Shown here: positions 51,827 through 57,992 of the stretch, piece after piece | Numbering within the stretch: the first letter of the stretch is position 1 | How the letters are laid out: the number at the start of each line of letters is the position of its first letter | Assembly (NCBI GenBank): GCA_035465695.1 | Contig: DATIVR010000057.1 | Location: 803-64,802, forward strand | DNA: 64,000 nt | Origin: Gammaproteobacteria bacterium | Lineage (GTDB): Bacteria; Pseudomonadota; Gammaproteobacteria; Natronospirales; REEB76 | Direction: 5' to 3' | The notes under the pieces: generated by a model | The model's database searches: none | The model's input: the letters and a program-made list of their open reading frames with translations, nothing else | What the model was told of the DNA's origin: nothing | Program-made: the position numbers and the translations under genes

Positions 51827-52552
51827 ATGACCAAACAAGACCACATCCTGTTGGTGGACGACGACGCGGAGATCCGGGCGCTCCTGTCCGAGTATCTGTC
51901 CCGCGAAGGCTTCCGTGTCACCGCCGTGGCTGACGGCCGCAGCATGGACGAAGCCATGGAAGACAACCGTTTCGACCTCGCGGTTTTGGATCTGATGTTG
52001 CCCGGCGAAGACGGGGTGAGTCTGTGCAAGCGGCTGCGTGCCAAGTCCGTGTTGCCGGTCATCATGCTCACCGCCCGGGGCGAGGAGGCCGACCGTATCA
52101 CCGGTCTTGAGGCGGGCGCCGACGATTACCTGGCCAAACCCTTCAACCCGCGCGAGCTCCTGGCGCGTATCCACAGCGTGCTGCGCCGCGCGCGCACCCT
52201 CCCCGAGGAGGTGACGCCGGAACAGGGTCGGCAGTTCAGCTTCTCCGGATGGAAGCTCGATACGCTCACCCGGCAGCTGGTCTCGGGCGCCGGTGTGACC
52301 ACGCCGCTGTCCGGCGCCGAATACCGGTTGTTGTGCGTATTCCTGCATCACGCCGGTCAGGTCCTGAGCCGCGACCAGCTGACCGAGATGATCCGCGGCC
52401 GGGGCAGTCACATGCCTTTCGACCGCAGCATCGACGTGCAGGTCAGCCGTCTGCGCCAACGCTTGGGTGACGATGGCCGGGTACCGGCCTTGATCCGCAC
52501 AGTGCGCGGCGAAGGTTACGTGTTATCGGTACCCGTGGAAGTGCAGGCCTGA
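51827..52552 (+). CDS. OmpR-family response regulator
   Basis: Receiver domain (ILLVDDD...DLAVLDLMLPGEDG...KPF) plus a winged-helix output domain (VRGEGYVL). Confidence 0.93.
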   Translation: MTKQDHILLVDDDAEIRALLSEYLSREGFRVTAVADGRSMDEAMEDNRFDLAVLDLMLPGEDGVSLCKRLRAKSVLPVIMLTARGEEADRITGLEAGADDYLAKPFNPRELLARIHSVLRRARTLPEEVTPEQGRQFSFSGWKLDTLTRQLVSGAGVTTPLSGAEYRLLCVFLHHAGQVLSRDQLTEMIRGRGSHMPFDRSIDVQVSRLRQRLGDDGRVPALIRTVRGEGYVLSVPVEVQA

Positions 52553-53910
52553 TGCGTTTCTGGCCACGGTCCCTCTATGGCCAGCTGGCGCTGGTGCTGT
52601 TGGCAGGCCTTCTGGTGGCCCAGATCGTGAGCGCGGCTATCAGCCTGGCTGAACGTGACCGGGCGTTATTCCGCTTCAGCGATGCCCAGTGGGCGCTGCG
52701 CGTGGCGCAGGCAGTCCGGCTCATGGACTCCCTTGACGCAAGTGAACGCCAACGCATCGCCGGCATCATCACCACGCCACGCCTGCTGGTGAGCCTGAGC
52801 CCGCAACCGCCCGTGAGCGGCCACTCAGATCCCGCCTCGGCGGACTATGAGGCCGCCCTCAAGGAGACTTTGGGCAGCGAACGTCAGGTGCGGGTGGTGG
52901 TGGCAGAACGCACGCCCGCGGAATCCATGGAAGGCGTACCGGCGACCGTGCACGCTCCCGGCATCAAACGCAGCCAACACGTCATCACCGAAGTACAGCT
53001 GAAGGACGGCAGTTGGGTGAACTTCGACCACCCTCGGCCTTGGGCGCTTACCGACAGCCCCCTCCGGTTGGTGCTGAGTCTGGGGGTGCTGCTGCTGTCG
53101 GTGCTGTTGCTCTCATTCCTGGCGGTGCGTTGGGTGACTCAGCCGCTCTCCACCCTGGCCCGCGCCGCGGATGAACTGGGCCGAGACCTCCACCGGCCGC
53201 CCTTGGCCGAGCAGGGTCCCCTGGAGGTGCGTGCTGCCTCGGCGGCTTTCAACACCATGCAGGCCCGCCTGCGCGACTATATATATGAGCGCACCCGCAT
53301 ACTCACGGCGGTCTCCCACGACCTGCGCACGCCCATCACCCGCATGCGCCTGCGCGCCGAGCTCCTGAGCGACGAGTCGCTCAAGGCCAAGCTGGTGCGC
53401 GACCTCCAGGAGATGGAGGAGATGACCAACGCCACGCTCTCGTTCTTGCGTGGATTCGAGGATCGTGAGCCGCTGCAGAGCGTGGACCTCATGGCGTTGC
53501 TGGAGAGCCTGGAGACGGACTCCGTCGATACGGGCTATGACGTGAAGCTCAATGGCCATATCGACCGGCCGGTGATGTTGCGGCCGCGCGCCCTGCGCCG
53601 CCTGCTCGACAACCTGGTCACCAACGCGGTGCGTTACGGCAAGAAGGCGATGGTCACGGTGCAGGACCTAGGAGAAGAGGTAGTGATCCGTGTCCGTGAC
53701 GCCGGCGTCGGCATCCCTCCGGAGGAACTGGAGAAGGTGTTCGAACCGTATTATCGGCTGGAGAAGGCGCGCAGCCAGGAGGGCGGTGGCACCGGCCTGG
53801 GTTTGAGCATCGCTCGTAACATCGCGGAGCTGCATGGGGGAAGGTTGATCCTGCAGAACCATCCGGCGGGCGGGCTGGAAGCGATCTTGACCTTACCCGC
53901 CCGCGACTAG
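52552..53910 (+). CDS. EnvZ-type sensor histidine kinase
   Basis: Two TM segments with a periplasmic loop, HAMP, H-box SHDLRTPIT, N box NLVTNAVRYG and G box GTGLGLSIA. TGATG coupling to the regulator gene. Confidence 0.92.
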   Translation: MRFWPRSLYGQLALVLLAGLLVAQIVSAAISLAERDRALFRFSDAQWALRVAQAVRLMDSLDASERQRIAGIITTPRLLVSLSPQPPVSGHSDPASADYEAALKETLGSERQVRVVVAERTPAESMEGVPATVHAPGIKRSQHVITEVQLKDGSWVNFDHPRPWALTDSPLRLVLSLGVLLLSVLLLSFLAVRWVTQPLSTLARAADELGRDLHRPPLAEQGPLEVRAASAAFNTMQARLRDYIYERTRILTAVSHDLRTPITRMRLRAELLSDESLKAKLVRDLQEMEEMTNATLSFLRGFEDREPLQSVDLMALLESLETDSVDTGYDVKLNGHIDRPVMLRPRALRRLLDNLVTNAVRYGKKAMVTVQDLGEEVVIRVRDAGVGIPPEELEKVFEPYYRLEKARSQEGGGTGLGLSIARNIAELHGGRLILQNHPAGGLEAILTLPARD

Positions 53911-54972
53911 CCGCTCGCCGCGAGCCTTCGCGGCCATGAGCTCGTCCAGCTTGCCGGTCACGTCTTCCACCCTGATGCAGTCCATGGCCTTCGGATCGCG
54001 CACCCGGGTTCCCCAGGGAGCCGTCTCAGGGGTGAGGTTGTCGAACTGCTTCAAGGCGTCGGGGTAGCGATCGACGCGCCAGCGCTGGCTGAGATAAGGG
54101 CCGGCGCGGTCTGGGTTGGTGGTGGCATAGATGCCGATCACCGGTATCCCTGCGGCGGTGCCCATGTGCACCGGTCCCGAATCCGGGGAGAGCAGCACGG
54201 TGGCTCGTTTCAGCAGCGCCAGCAATTCCTTCAGGCTGGTCTTGCCTACCAGGTTCACGACCGTGGTCTTCGACAGGGCGCTTATGCGTTCGCCATAGGC
54301 TGTCTCGATCTCGCTGCGGCCACCTGTCACCAGCACCTGCATGCCGTGCTTCCGCGCTGCGTGATCCGCCACTGCGGCGTAGTATTCCGGCTGCCAACTG
54401 CGCCAGTTGCGGAAGCGTGGATTGGCGCAGGGACTGATGATCAATGTGGGTTGGCTGCCGGGGATCCGCTCCGCAGCGAAGGCGTCGGCCGCCCTAGGCA
54501 CCGGGATATCCCAGCGCAGCACGTGCTCCTGGACACCCAGCGCTTCGCTGAAACCGAAGAGGCTGTCCATCACGTGTTGGCGATCCCGGTGCGGGATGCG
54601 GCGGTTGGTGAACAACCACTGGAAGTCGTGGGCACGCTCGCGGTCGAAACCCAGGCGCACCGGCGCCTTCACCGCGAGGCTGCCGATGCTCGCGCGCAGC
54701 GACATCTGCATGTGCAACAGGATATCGAAGCGCCGGCCTTTCAACGCGCGCTTCACCTGCCCGTACGGCCTTTGCGACTTGTCGAAGGTGATAAACTCGA
54801 TGCCAGGGATGTCGCCCACCAGACTCGCTTCGAGTTTGCCGATGATCCAGGTGATGCGCGTGGCTGGCCAAGCTTGCTGCAAGGTGCGCACCACCGGAAG
54901 CGTGTGGCACACGTCGCCTACCGCTGAAAGGCGCATCACGCACAGCGATTCGGGAGCGGGCGGTTTGGCCAT
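53893..54972 (-). CDS. Glycosyltransferase family 9 (LPS heptosyltransferase)
   Basis: N-terminus MRLSAVGDVCHTLPVV parallels the WaaC/WaaF SMGDV-HTLP motif. ATG 54972 is preferred over TTG 55005. The 3' end overlaps the kinase gene by 18 nt. Confidence 0.85.
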   Translation of the reverse strand: MAKPPAPESLCVMRLSAVGDVCHTLPVVRTLQQAWPATRITWIIGKLEASLVGDIPGIEFITFDKSQRPYGQVKRALKGRRFDILLHMQMSLRASIGSLAVKAPVRLGFDRERAHDFQWLFTNRRIPHRDRQHVMDSLFGFSEALGVQEHVLRWDIPVPRAADAFAAERIPGSQPTLIISPCANPRFRNWRSWQPEYYAAVADHAARKHGMQVLVTGGRSEIETAYGERISALSKTTVVNLVGKTSLKELLALLKRATVLLSPDSGPVHMGTAAGIPVIGIYATTNPDRAGPYLSQRWRVDRYPDALKQFDNLTPETAPWGTRVRDPKAMDCIRVEDVTGKLDELMAAKARGERLVAGG

Positions 54973-54990
54973 GTCGGGAGACCGTTTGGG

Positions 54991-55677
54991 ATGACGGCGA
55001 TGCAACTGGAATCCGGGCGCGCGGTCATCCTATACGATGACGCACTGGTTGACCACGCGGACCCGGCATTGTTCGTGCCACCGGTGGAGGCCGCCGCGGC
55101 CGTGGGTGGGCGCGGCAGCGCCTGGCTGGTCCAGCATGGCGCGGATCAGTGGGTGTTGCGGCATTATCGGCGCGGCGGGCTGCCTGGTCGTTTCATCCAC
55201 GACGCCTATCTATGGACCGGACTGGAAGTCACCCGCGCCTGGCGCGAGTGGCGCCTGCTGTACTCGCTGTATCAGGAAGGACTGCCGGTGCCGCAGCCGG
55301 TGGCGGCCCAGGTGGTCCGGACCGGATTCATCTACCGAGCCGACCTCATCACCCGGCGCATCCTGGCCGCCAGCAGCATCGCGACGCTGATGGAGGGGGG
55401 CGGCGAGAGCCGCATTCCCTGGTCTGAAGCCGGCCGCACGGTGCGCAGGCTTCACGACGCCGGTGTCTTCCACGCGGACCTGAACGCCCATAACTTGCTG
55501 GTGGACGCCGCCGCCAAGGTGCACGTCATCGATCTTGACCGCGGAGAGCGGCGCGGTCCAGGCGCCTGGCGGCAGGCGAACCTGGCGCGGCTCGAGCGTT
55601 CATTGTGCAAGCTGACCGGATCCAAAGCTGTCATCGCACCGGCATGGGCGGCGTTCTTGGACGGGTACAGAGCCTGA
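54991..55677 (+). CDS. kdkA: 3-deoxy-D-manno-octulosonic acid (Kdo) kinase
   Basis: Small kinase fold with WVLRHYRRGG and the catalytic loop FHADLNAHNLLVD. LPS core gene context. Confidence 0.85.
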   Translation: MTAMQLESGRAVILYDDALVDHADPALFVPPVEAAAAVGGRGSAWLVQHGADQWVLRHYRRGGLPGRFIHDAYLWTGLEVTRAWREWRLLYSLYQEGLPVPQPVAAQVVRTGFIYRADLITRRILAASSIATLMEGGGESRIPWSEAGRTVRRLHDAGVFHADLNAHNLLVDAAAKVHVIDLDRGERRGPGAWRQANLARLERSLCKLTGSKAVIAPAWAAFLDGYRA

Positions 55678-55693: not shown

Positions 55694-57034
55694 ATGAACA
55701 TGACGTCACGTCACCTCGCGGTCTTATCGTTGGCGATGCTGTTGTCAGCCTGTGACAAGAGTCCGCAGAACTCTACACCCGCTTCAGCGCCGGCCGGCGC
55801 CACGCATGCCCCTGCGGCAGCCGTGACTGCGCCTGCACCGGTCAGCGCGCCCGCCGCCACCACCGCGCCGGCTGCTGCCAGTGACAATGGCCCCGAGGTC
55901 GCCGGTTCGGTGGCGGTGGCCCAAGGCAGCGTCGCTGATACGGCGAAAGACGGCACGGTACGGCAACTCAAGGACGGGGATGACGTCTATCCGGGCGATC
56001 TTTTCTTGGTGGGCCCCGACAGTTATCTGGACCTGGACTTGGAGGACTCCGGACGCATCCTGCTGCATCCCAATACCAGGTTCCAGATCGAGAGCTATCA
56101 TTTCGACCCGGCGGCCCACGATCCTAACGCTCCGACCGATGCGAATGGCCAGCCGCTCATCAAGCCCGAGCAACCGGAGAACGCGTTCTTCCGCCTGATC
56201 AAGGGTGGCCTGCGCGCGGTCGATGGATTGATCGGCCACAGCTCCCCCCAGAACTATGCGGTGGAGACCCCGGTGGCCACCATCGGTGTGCGCGGCACCG
56301 CCTTCGATGTGCGGTATTGCGGCGACGACTGTGGTGACGAGGCGGATGCCGCGGGCAAGCCGGAGAACGGGCTCTATACCTCGGTGACCGAGGGCACGGT
56401 GGATGTGAAGAACGATGACGGCGACGTCGTCACCCCCGCTGGCCATTCGGGGTTCGTACGGAGCCGCAAGCAGCGCATGCAGGCCCTGGCTACGCCGCCC
56501 AGGGTGCTACGCCATATGGGTCTGCCGGAGGCCCTGAAAGCGCGAGCCACGAGGAACCGCAGCCAGATCCAGGTGCGCCGCCAGCAACGCCTACAACGGA
56601 TGATCGAACGCCGTCGTCAGGCCTTGCAGAAGGCCCATGCCGCCGGCAGGCCCGCGGCGGCTACACCGCCAGGAAGGCGAGGCCAGCGCCGGGAAGAGAA
56701 GCGCGGCACCGCCCAACGCCCGGCCCACAAGGCCGCCCGCATGCAGCAGCGCGAGGAACGCCGACAGGAACGGAAGCAGAAGCGGCAGGCATTACCCGGC
56801 AAAGGAAAGGTCGGGCCGGCCGGGCAGGCGTCTACGCCGCCCGAACGACGGCAGCAGCGCCTTGAGGTACGTCAGCGCGCGCTGATGCAAGAGAATAAGG
56901 CCGCGCATTCGAAACCGGACACTGTGCCCCGCGCCGCGAAGGGGACGCAGAAACAAGGCGACGCCCGTTGCAAGGGCAGACTCCGCCGCGGCAAGAAGCA
57001 GGAAAGAGATAAGGACAAATGCGGAGGCGGCTGA
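55694..57034 (+). CDS. FecR-domain lipoprotein with long Arg/Lys/Gln-rich C-terminal tail
   Basis: Lipobox LAMLLSAC, an Ala/Pro linker and a FecR-like region (DGDDVYPGDLFLVGPDSYLDLDLEDSGRILLHPNTRFQI). By my count, about 50 of the last ~163 residues are Arg or Lys. Confidence 0.7.
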   Translation: MNMTSRHLAVLSLAMLLSACDKSPQNSTPASAPAGATHAPAAAVTAPAPVSAPAATTAPAAASDNGPEVAGSVAVAQGSVADTAKDGTVRQLKDGDDVYPGDLFLVGPDSYLDLDLEDSGRILLHPNTRFQIESYHFDPAAHDPNAPTDANGQPLIKPEQPENAFFRLIKGGLRAVDGLIGHSSPQNYAVETPVATIGVRGTAFDVRYCGDDCGDEADAAGKPENGLYTSVTEGTVDVKNDDGDVVTPAGHSGFVRSRKQRMQALATPPRVLRHMGLPEALKARATRNRSQIQVRRQQRLQRMIERRRQALQKAHAAGRPAAATPPGRRGQRREEKRGTAQRPAHKAARMQQREERRQERKQKRQALPGKGKVGPAGQASTPPERRQQRLEVRQRALMQENKAAHSKPDTVPRAAKGTQKQGDARCKGRLRRGKKQERDKDKCGGG

Positions 57035-57107: not shown

Positions 57108-57992
57108 TTAGTCGCGAGGCACTACCTTGAAACGGTCATGGCTCCAGAGGTACTGCTCCGGCACTTTTCGGATATGGTCTTCCAATAGCCTGTTCACCCG
57201 CACCAGATCCGCCACCGGGTCATCGCTGGGAAAGTCTTCCAGGGCTGGTAGCACCGTGACCTTGTAGCCCTGCATCCCAGGCAGGCGCTCACCGAAGAAT
57301 GGAACCACCGCCGCACCGCTCGTCTTCGCGAGCTTCGGCAGGCCCGGGTTCGTAGGAGCAGGGATGCCGAAGAACGGCACCTGGACGCTGTTCTTGCCCC
57401 GGTAACCCTGGTCGGTGGCGTACCAGATGGGCTTGCCGTCCTTGAGGCTGCGCAGCAGCATGCGCACGTCGTTGCGTTGGATGGCGTGCTCGAAGAGCTT
57501 CTCCCGGGCACGGCGCATCACATACTCGATCACAGGATTGCGGATCGGGCGATACAGCATGAAGAGATCGGTATGCAACCCGAGCATACGGCCGCAGATC
57601 TCGAGCGTCGTGAAATGCCCTGCCAGCAGGATCACGCCCTTGCCACGCGCCCGGGCGGCCTTCAGGTTCTCCAGCCCTTCGACGGGGCCCAGGCGATCCA
57701 TGCGTTCACGGCTCGCCCACCAGCACATGCCGAACTCGATGATGGCGGTGCCCATGGAGGTGAAATGTCTGCGTGCCAGTGTGTAACGGGCCCGCTCATC
57801 GAGCTCCGGGAAGCACAGCGCGAGGTTCTTGAGTGTGATGCGGCGACGGCGCGGCGCCACCTGCCAGAACAGCCAGCCCGTGGCGCGGCCCAACATGAGT
57901 TGCACCGGATAGGGCAGCAGGACACCGAGCCGGATGTAACCGATCAGCAGCCAGGCGGGCCAGTTACGCGGGTGGAAAAGCTCGGCCTTCAT
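57108..57992 (-). CDS. lpxL: Lipid A biosynthesis late acyltransferase (LpxL/LpxM/HtrB family)
   Basis: N-terminal TM. HX4D/E-type acyltransferase motif context (LLAGHFTTLE). About 294 aa, typical size. Confidence 0.88.
   Translation of the reverse strand: MKAELFHPRNWPAWLLIGYIRLGVLLPYPVQLMLGRATGWLFWQVAPRRRRITLKNLALCFPELDERARYTLARRHFTSMGTAIIEFGMCWWASRERMDRLGPVEGLENLKAARARGKGVILLAGHFTTLEICGRMLGLHTDLFMLYRPIRNPVIEYVMRRAREKLFEHAIQRNDVRMLLRSLKDGKPIWYATDQGYRGKNSVQVPFFGIPAPTNPGLPKLAKTSGAAVVPFFGERLPGMQGYKVTVLPALEDFPSDDPVADLVRVNRLLEDHIRKVPEQYLWSHDRFKVVPRD

Follow-up and report, generated by a model that had tools for sequence, protein, structure and literature searches.

We analysed a 64,000-nt stretch of DNA (hereafter the window) from contig DATIVR010000057.1 of the Gammaproteobacteria assembly GCA_035465695.1, in which an open reading frame (ORF) at 55694..57034 on the forward strand encodes a predicted lipoprotein of 446 residues with a FecR-type fold and a long polycationic tail, embedded in a lipopolysaccharide (LPS) core cluster. 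In the public annotation of the metagenome-assembled genome (MAG), the identical protein (P0001) starts two codons later (55700), has 444 residues and is named only 'FecR family protein'. The gene lies between kdkA (54991..55677, forward strand), encoding the 3-deoxy-D-manno-oct-2-ulosonic acid (Kdo) kinase, and lpxL (57108..57992, reverse strand), encoding a lipid A secondary acyltransferase, as an initial annotation made by reading the sequence alone had proposed. Both assignments exceeded the family cut-offs (KdkA, NCBIfam NF002475, 248 bits against a 142-bit cut-off, E=6e-74, and Pfam Kdo, E=1e-46; LpxL, TIGR02207, 318.8 bits against a 297.8-bit cut-off, and Pfam Lip_A_acyltrans, E=7e-67). 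A glycosyltransferase family 9 (GT9) heptosyltransferase gene (53893..55005, reverse strand; Pfam Glyco_transf_9, E=2e-44) is divergent from kdkA, and the flanks further hold hldE, waaA, an OmpR/EnvZ-like pair and RND/OEP (TolC-like) efflux genes, two OEP/TolC-like genes being present. Homology searches retrieved 101 homologues, 77 of which are long-tail proteins with the full architecture, and residues described below as invariant are so in an alignment of 30 family sequences (A1). Every family member came from a soil metagenome, and the family is real and limited to one clade of uncultured soil Gammaproteobacteria. No DNA tandem repeats were found in the lipoprotein gene, and neither paralogues, further cationic-tail genes, Rfam families nor tRNAs were found in the 64-kb window; a promoter/terminator scan gave nothing exceeding shuffled expectation.

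The first 20 residues (55694..55753), MNMTSRHLAVLSLAMLLSAC, form a signal peptide with a basic n-region, a hydrophobic h-region and a lipobox, LLSAC, which satisfies the criterion [LVI][ASTVIG][GAS]C and places the predicted lipidated cysteine at the invariant Cys20. The lipobox was matched in 61 of the 77 long-tail members, the rest being mostly sequences with no match to this expression or with no complete N-terminus. This is a type II (lipoprotein) signal peptide, and Cys20 should therefore carry the lipid anchor of the mature protein, no part of which is expected in the cytoplasm; the conserved signal peptide and invariant lipobox cysteine are thus in line with the exported lipoprotein envisaged at the outset. 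Exactly four cysteine residues follow the lipid cysteine in all of the 61 sequences counted (61/61), forming two short-range pairs (C209/C213 and C426/C443), and such an even count of paired cysteine residues is the pattern that would be expected for periplasmic disulfides of an exported protein. The residues at positions +2 to +4 are D-K-S in the window protein and mostly G-K/R/Q-S across the family. Asp at +2 is the rule for inner-membrane retention in E. coli. Lipoprotein sorting rules are variable outside Enterobacteria, and an assignment to the inner or the outer membrane from these residues was dropped as unreliable there. The anchor is followed by an Ala/Pro/Thr-rich flexible linker of ~46 residues (residues 21-66; 55754..55891), which is disordered in the AlphaFold2 (AF2) model (predicted local distance difference test score, pLDDT, ~34) and varies in length within the family. 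In a codon-level comparison of the window gene with ten related loci, the ratio of non-synonymous to synonymous substitution rates (dN/dS) of the linker was 0.14-0.42.

Residues 67-268 (55892..56497) form an acidic beta-domain that has the FecR/PupR fold. Pfam FecR (PF04773) matched residues 106-212 with 30.5 bits against a 24-bit cut-off (E=5e-7), and the lipobox, the Ala/Pro linker and the FecR-like beta-rich region described in the initial annotation are all present. The AF2 core of the domain had a pLDDT of 80-93, and Foldseek matched it to the periplasmic cell-surface-signalling domain of PupR (6ovk_R, E=9.5e-6) and to BDI_1681, a Bacteroides anti-sigma periplasmic domain (4m0h/4m0n; E=3.9e-5 for 4m0h). 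The first ~65 residues also matched the anchoring domain of MpIBP (5ix9) with a TM-score of 0.80 and a root mean square deviation of 0.9 Å. The domain had a dN/dS of 0.06-0.18 and is acidic across the family, with a net charge of -9 to -21 (median -13).

The segment TPVATIGVRGTAFDVRYCGDDCxDE of this domain is practically invariant in the family. It contains Gly201-Thr202 (56294..56299), both residues being invariant, and the C209-G-D-D-C213 motif (56318..56332) within an acidic patch, DDCxDEAD, in which C209 and C213 are likewise invariant; a C-x2-3-[DE]-C motif is also found in some distant FecR-like relatives. An hhalign comparison of the window segment YAVETPVATIGVRGTAFDVRYC with FecR aligned Gly181-Thr182 of FecR with Gly201-Thr202 of ATIGVRG↓TAFDVRYC, the match being short and statistically weak. 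E. coli FecR cleaves itself at the Gly181-Thr182 bond, and FoxR at Gly191-Thr192, by a non-enzymatic N-O acyl shift, after which the two halves remain associated until signalling separates them (PMC12036975, PMC9249621, PMC11637429). Because the domain keeps the FecR Gly-Thr motif, to which the initial annotation had not drawn attention, the lipoprotein may also cleave itself at Gly201-Thr202. Such cleavage, if it occurs, would give a lipid-anchored N-terminal fragment and a C-terminal fragment carrying the cationic tail.

The tail, counted from nt 56543 (residues 284-446), contains 34 Arg and 16 Lys residues, so that the initial estimate of about 50 basic residues in about 163 was exact, together with 14 Asp/Glu and 22 Gln; the RRQQRL-type motifs and the terminus ...KKQERDKDKCGGG quoted at that time were also found. 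It is preceded by and overlaps with a junction and first cationic helix (residues 269-316; 56498..56641), of the form ALRHMxLPxxLKAR...RRQQRxQ, in which L272, R273, M275, L277, P278 and R284 are invariant. The first helix itself (residues 279-316) is conserved and was modelled with a pLDDT of 81-91, and the junction plus first-helix segment is shared with the short-tail relatives described below. A variable polycationic region follows (56642..56965), with three shorter helices (residues 327-338, 344-365 and 384-403) separated by Pro/Gly-rich linkers and with TPxERRQ capping-box-like repeats, T-P-x-E-R-R starts being common, as judged from the AF2 model and motif counts. The protein ends in a Lys/Arg-rich loop between the invariant Cys426 and Cys443 and then Gly-Gly-Gly (56969..57031). 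Among the 77 long-tail members, the spacer between these two cysteine residues is 9-23 residues long (median 14), the loop has a median of nine Lys/Arg residues and the terminus is GG[DG]. AF2 thus predicted four helices and then a disordered end, consistent with the disordered or helical tail suggested initially. The tail varies in length by gain and loss of repeats: P0035 and P0037 differ by one 40-residue unit, GGAAPAADQGRPGAAEKGTKSETPMERRQQRREQLQEQRK. These two proteins are otherwise near-identical by eye, and the extra repeat points to a recent repeat expansion or contraction.

A long run of basic residues is not in itself a sign of a real protein in DNA of this composition. Spurious frames of the window (64.5% GC) were often Arg-rich, reaching a net charge of +17 to +22 per 60 residues (examples are the out-of-frame ORFs at ~24611 and ~32405 on the forward strand and ~41738 on the reverse strand), and they are useful as a negative control wherever a sequence is called 'polycationic' by eye. 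These frames contain only 0-2 Lys, compared with 16 in the real tail. Furthermore, 77 of the 101 homologues have a tail of 153-230 residues after the conserved ALRHM junction, with 46-63 Lys/Arg residues and a net charge of +19 to +40 (median +30), and in these 77 the reading frame is intact to the terminal motif C-K-x-K-K-K-R-K...K-D-K-C-G-G-[DG]. The absence or frameshifting of the tail in close relatives, which had been named initially as a sign of an artefact, was therefore not observed. The dN/dS was 0.27-0.45 for the tail beyond the first helix and 0-0.49 for the first helix, indicating at the codon level that the tail is under purifying selection, relaxed as expected for a composition-constrained region. 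On account of its Lys content, its conservation in the 77 homologues and a dN/dS below 1, the tail is a genuine coding sequence. The segregation of charge between the acidic domain and the basic tail, given by the medians above (-13 and +30), is kept across the family.

We then asked what the tail resembles. No homologues of it outside the family were found in Pfam (E up to 1), NCBIfam or the sequences of the Protein Data Bank (PDB), and when 1.8 billion representative proteins were searched exhaustively with phmmer, only two tail matches were returned, both of them family members. An ER/K single alpha-helix was rejected, as there are only two i/i+4 pairs of opposite charge in 125 residues and the net charge is +37 here rather than near-neutral. 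A membrane-inserting amphipathic helix was also ruled out by the mean hydrophobicity of -0.7 to -1.25 and a content of hydrophobic residues of 11%. Self-repulsion would be expected of isolated helices with so much positive charge, and in physical terms the tail is most simply read as a disordered polycation that would fold upon binding a polyanion.

To place the gene in its context, we compared the surrounding loci. The gene order of the clade is RND-OEP-OmpR-histidine kinase-GT9(-)-kdkA-[lipoprotein gene]-lpxL(-)-hldE-waaA-OEP, where (-) marks reverse-strand genes, and this synteny was complete in each of the ten GTDB representative loci, and the most divergent of the long-tail members has it too. 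The distance from the kdkA stop codon to the lipoprotein start codon is 16 nt in the window and 1-47 nt across the 11 syntenic loci, and no terminator-like site was found between the two genes in the window. From the short gaps and the lack of a terminator-like site, the lipoprotein gene is likely to be co-transcribed with kdkA. The adjacency to kdkA is retained even where another gene has been inserted downstream of the lipoprotein gene. As noted initially, the usual FecR context is missing: no extracytoplasmic function (ECF) sigma factor or TonB-dependent receptor gene was found within ~6 kb of the lipoprotein gene, nor in the syntenic loci.

Outside the clade the picture was different. Loci chosen through KdkA orthologues (50-55% identity) included four from sister lineages (L090, L091, L093 and L094) in which the lipoprotein gene is absent and kdkA abuts a convergent downstream gene with a gap of 1-28 nt. 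This convergent gene is lpxL in L090, L091 and L093; the L094 gene runs off the contig and gave no Pfam call. The cluster is essentially full in L090 and L093, L091 has only the GT9-kdkA-lpxL-hldE-waaA-OEP core, and L094 ends just after kdkA. A Thiohalomonadaceae locus also lacks the lipoprotein gene; the nearest named KdkA is from Thiohalomonadaceae (52%). In view of these loci without the gene, the most parsimonious reading is that the lipoprotein gene entered an older cluster at its convergent kdkA/lpxL junction in this lineage only. This junction seems to be an insertion hot spot. A 399-residue glycosyltransferase-like gene lies between the lipoprotein gene and lpxL in 5/12 clade loci (L085:9441-10640, reverse strand, with matching gaps of 1.2-1.4 kb in L001, L002, L007 and L086); it matches GT-B families weakly (EryCIII-like_C and Glyco_trans_4_4) and is missing from the window, in which 73 nt separate the lipoprotein gene from lpxL. 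The LPS neighbourhood stressed in the initial annotation is therefore conserved around the gene within the clade, but the four sister loci have cluster genes with no lipoprotein gene among them, the genes of the short-tail relatives lie elsewhere, and the neighbourhood is less informative than first thought; a deep conservation of this neighbourhood was rejected.

The nearest relatives outside the clade share ~50% identity in the domain and have an ordinary signal peptide with neither lipobox nor linker. They keep the CxxDC motif and the ALRHM junction, and their tails are 40-100 residues long and very Arg-rich, with no Cys loop. More distant FecR-like proteins (27-41% identity) have no cationic tail and no LPS neighbours. 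From this distribution, the unit of beta-domain and cationic C-terminal helix appears to be older than the association with LPS genes, and the clade would have added the lipid anchor, the spacer, the tail extension and the Cys loop.

Compared with the FecR, FoxR and PupR regulators, the lipoprotein has in common the fold of the periplasmic domain and possibly also the cleavage motif, a Gly-Thr pair aligned with their self-cleavage position. Unlike them, it has a 20-residue lipoprotein signal and a predicted lipid anchor, no cytoplasmic anti-sigma domain and no transmembrane helix (neither another Pfam domain nor a second hydrophobic segment was found), and in place of an STN-like domain it carries the polycationic tail, its C-terminal 177 residues having no Pfam, NCBIfam or PDB match. 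Four of five defining features of FecR/PupR proteins are thus lacking (the anti-sigma domain with its transmembrane helix, the STN-like domain, the sigma factor and the transducer context). Lipoproteins with a FecR-type domain are known from Leptospira, where LipL45 (P31) and Lsa33 likewise combine a lipoprotein signal with such a domain outside any sigma-factor context; they differ in having no polycationic tail and no terminal Cys loop and come from an unrelated phylum, and the score of the window protein for their family (NF047849) was 24 bits against a 420-bit cut-off, so it is not a member. The closest architectural logic is that of LysM-FecR proteins (COG4254/PA4035 type), which join a FecR domain to a module for binding an envelope polymer. 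Those proteins use an N-terminal LysM as the binding module, have no lipid anchor and are partnered with a CHASE2 sensor kinase, whereas no LysM match was found in the lipoprotein and no CHASE2 kinase beside its gene, the neighbouring kinase being HAMP/EnvZ-like. The retention module of the RTX adhesins LapA/MpIBP (5ix9) shows a structural overlap over 64 residues and weak sequence matches, but the score for NF033682 was 28.1 against a 50-bit cut-off, and the lipoprotein contains neither RTX nor adhesin repeats and is no substrate of type I secretion. It also differs from Slam-dependent lipoproteins, as neither the window region nor the syntenic loci hold a SlipAM gene, and its C-terminus is helical or disordered, with no beta-barrel.

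Cationic elements that bind LPS offer a further comparison. In anti-LPS factors, lactoferricin and thanatin, disulfide-closed cationic loops contact the phosphates of lipid A and the core; PbgA/YejM has a basic linker, and the basic periplasmic protein Skp is encoded among lipid A genes. All of these are analogies only: the lipoprotein has no sequence or structural homology to them, and its loop is purely charged. A literature search found no paper describing a FecR fold with a polycationic tail, and the tail falls outside all Pfam, NCBIfam and PDB families, which bears out the early impression that the architecture is uncharacterized. What is undescribed is the combination of a conserved polycationic tail and Cys loop on a FecR-fold envelope protein in lipoprotein format.

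Being too hydrophilic for membrane insertion and no ER/K helix, the tail has the appearance of a binder of polyanions. In the mechanism that we propose, the tail would bind a polyanionic component of the envelope through multivalent electrostatic contacts, probably becoming helical once bound, while the lipid anchor and spacer would hold the other end in a membrane, and the whole protein would tether or sense the polyanion. The FecR-fold domain would provide a docking surface and, perhaps being self-cleaved into two non-covalently held halves, could make the tether a releasable one. LysM-FecR proteins give a precedent, in that a FecR domain can be joined to an envelope-polymer-binding module. 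We hold this reading, an electrostatic envelope tether or sensor that binds a polyanion through its tail, tentatively, at somewhat below an even chance. The leading candidate ligand would be LPS, through the phosphates of lipid A and Kdo and the carboxylates of Kdo. KdkA phosphorylates Kdo, and LPS takes this place only because of the likely co-transcription of the gene with kdkA, an association which would reflect operon membership and not deep conservation. That LPS specifically is the ligand is the more doubtful part of the proposal, and we consider it possible but rather unlikely.

Several points weigh against this interpretation. Binding of a polyanion by the tail is something that we infer from its sequence, the AF2 helices of the tail may be over-predicted, and the FecR match around the Gly-Thr pair has the short length and weak statistics given above. 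Peptide loops that bind lipid A typically contain hydrophobic or aromatic residues, and the terminal loop, made up of Lys, Arg and Asp, has none of these. LPS displays its head groups at two places only, the cell surface and the periplasmic face of the inner membrane, and which membrane the lipoprotein occupies (inner, outer or the surface) is not predictable because sorting signals vary outside Enterobacteria. The gene neighbourhood also cuts both ways. The four sister-lineage loci have the cluster genes with no lipoprotein gene, and as convergent junctions permit insertion, the adjacency to kdkA may be an accident followed by vertical inheritance. Finally, the short-tail relatives are non-lipoproteins in unrelated contexts, away from LPS genes, so that the cationic tail would predate, or be independent of, the LPS context.

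The alternative that survives best, although we consider it unlikely, is a surface or released adhesin or matrix protein whose tail binds polyanions outside the cell, for instance DNA, acidic exopolysaccharide or the clay and humic surfaces of soil, the adjacency to LPS genes being incidental. The Leptospira FecR-domain lipoproteins LipL45 and Lsa33 are surface or peripheral membrane proteins, and a 31-kDa peripheral-membrane form of LipL45 is also known. This form arises by lipoprotein processing. Such a role would also suit a lipoprotein gene that was inserted into an LPS cluster, a family drawn wholly from soil metagenomes, a beta-domain that partly resembles the RTX-adhesin anchoring domain 5ix9, and distant FecR-like relatives encoded beside outer-membrane translocators (TPR plus SlipAM in L011, L052 and L046, and TpsB in L015). 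Against these stand the absence of Slam, TpsB or any other translocator within ~6 kb in the window or the syntenic loci, the lack of a C-terminal beta-barrel such as Slam substrates possess, the NCBIfam scores for Lsa33 and for the retention module, which are far under their cut-offs, and the conserved tight spacing to kdkA.

Less probable again is a signalling module, in which a self-cleaved FecR-fold protein would act as a proteolysis-gated relay and the tail would sense envelope charge or cations, with a partner such as the OmpR/EnvZ-like pair or a periplasmic protease. The mechanism is established for FecR and FoxR, and the invariant Gly-Thr pair of the lipoprotein is aligned with the FecR cleavage site; secreted LysM-FecR proteins share operons with sensor kinases, one distant relative of the lipoprotein adjoins a CHASE2 cyclase, and the OmpR/EnvZ-like pair is conserved two genes upstream. 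However, the protein has no cytoplasmic anti-sigma domain, transmembrane helix or STN-like C-terminal domain, and no ECF sigma factor or TonB-dependent transducer is encoded nearby. Moreover, the two-component system is present in sister lineages without the lipoprotein gene and is thus independent of the lipoprotein, and the neighbouring kinase is of the HAMP/EnvZ type and not a CHASE2 protein.

It is quite improbable, in our view, that the protein is a periplasm-spanning spacer or peptidoglycan strut comparable with TolA domain II, LpoB or Lpp, whose terminal Cys loop would dock a protein or peptidoglycan. The disordered linker of ~46 residues together with ~92 helical residues (~14 nm) could by the model span the periplasm, and conservation within the tail is highest in the terminal loop and the first helix, but a tail of 153-230 residues that changes by repeat units is a poor fit to a precise ruler, no ER/K pattern stiffens the helices, and no known peptidoglycan-binding domain is present. 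The last alternative, that annotation or assembly produced the tail as an artefact or that it is a non-functional read-through of GC-rich DNA, is effectively refuted, for although Arg-rich spurious ORFs are common in this window, the tail is Lys-rich unlike those frames, 77 independent metagenomic homologues share it together with its frame and its last 20 residues, and its dN/dS is below 1.

Returning to the tether or sensor reading, its most specific version is also speculative, and we give it little credence. With the lipid anchor in one membrane, the tail and its Lys-rich disulfide loop would cross-bridge phosphorylated Kdo and lipid A of LPS, with the self-cleaved domain as a latch sensitive to force or charge; the protein would substitute for or supplement divalent-cation bridging in cation-poor acidic soils, and the halves would part when the envelope is perturbed. 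If this were true, it would be a sigma-factor-independent re-use of FecR cleavage for surveillance of LPS and the outer membrane. More generally, if the tail binds LPS, the family would be a new class of envelope protein in which a self-cleaving FecR sensor fold and a proteinaceous polycation were recruited into a Kdo/lipid A operon, with a bearing on how the outer membrane is stabilized or monitored under scarcity of divalent cations and on the re-use of FecR outside iron signalling. Regardless of LPS binding, the locus is a clear example of a gene inserted, in one lineage, into an LPS core cluster that is otherwise rigid, and the family defines a conserved cationic Cys-loop motif as a candidate LPS- or polyanion-binding peptide. 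The value of these observations is limited by the fact that all of the members come from uncultured organisms.

Some further observations were made on the neighbouring genes. The GT9 ORF as listed overlaps the start of the divergent kdkA by 15 nt (54991-55005) and the stop of the convergent histidine-kinase gene by 18 nt (53893-53910); the true GT9 start is probably an internal ATG (MAKPP...), since GT9 and kdkA do not overlap in L085. The OmpR/EnvZ-like pair (51827-53910) scored below the NCBIfam equivalog cut-offs and is conserved beside the LPS core cluster, being present in the sister loci L090, L093 and L094 and absent upstream in L091. One clade locus, L007 (JBLNDO010000103.1), comes from a MAG labelled 'Bacillota bacterium', yet it has the full gammaproteobacterial OmpR-EnvZ-GT9-kdkA-lipoprotein-lpxL synteny at 58-83% identity, and the contig is probably mis-binned.

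The distant FecR-like proteins showed associations of their own. In several loci their genes lie directly downstream of a gene for a TPR plus SlipAM (Slam-type) or similar beta-barrel outer-membrane protein (L011:8554-9912, L052:8561-9883, L046:5663-7006 and L067:8581-9942). The FecR-like proteins in question are 590-610 residues long, with an acidic C-terminal half and the ending ...GGGF.F...H.EG.LLV[EQ]. This points to a so far undescribed class of surface proteins that depend on Slam and carry a FecR-like domain at the N-terminus. Other distant FecR-like genes lie beside a ShlB/FhaC-type TpsB gene (L015:8209-9861) or a CHASE2-guanylate cyclase gene (L034:7666-9906), and standalone FecR-like domains thus have a range of partners. 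In Coxiellaceae MAG loci (L025-L077, e.g. L028, L036, L037, L043 and L058), small secreted FecR-like proteins of 240-300 residues share a conserved C-terminal motif, ...G-F-C-I-[QNS], which in many cases follows a stretch rich in Gly and Ser.

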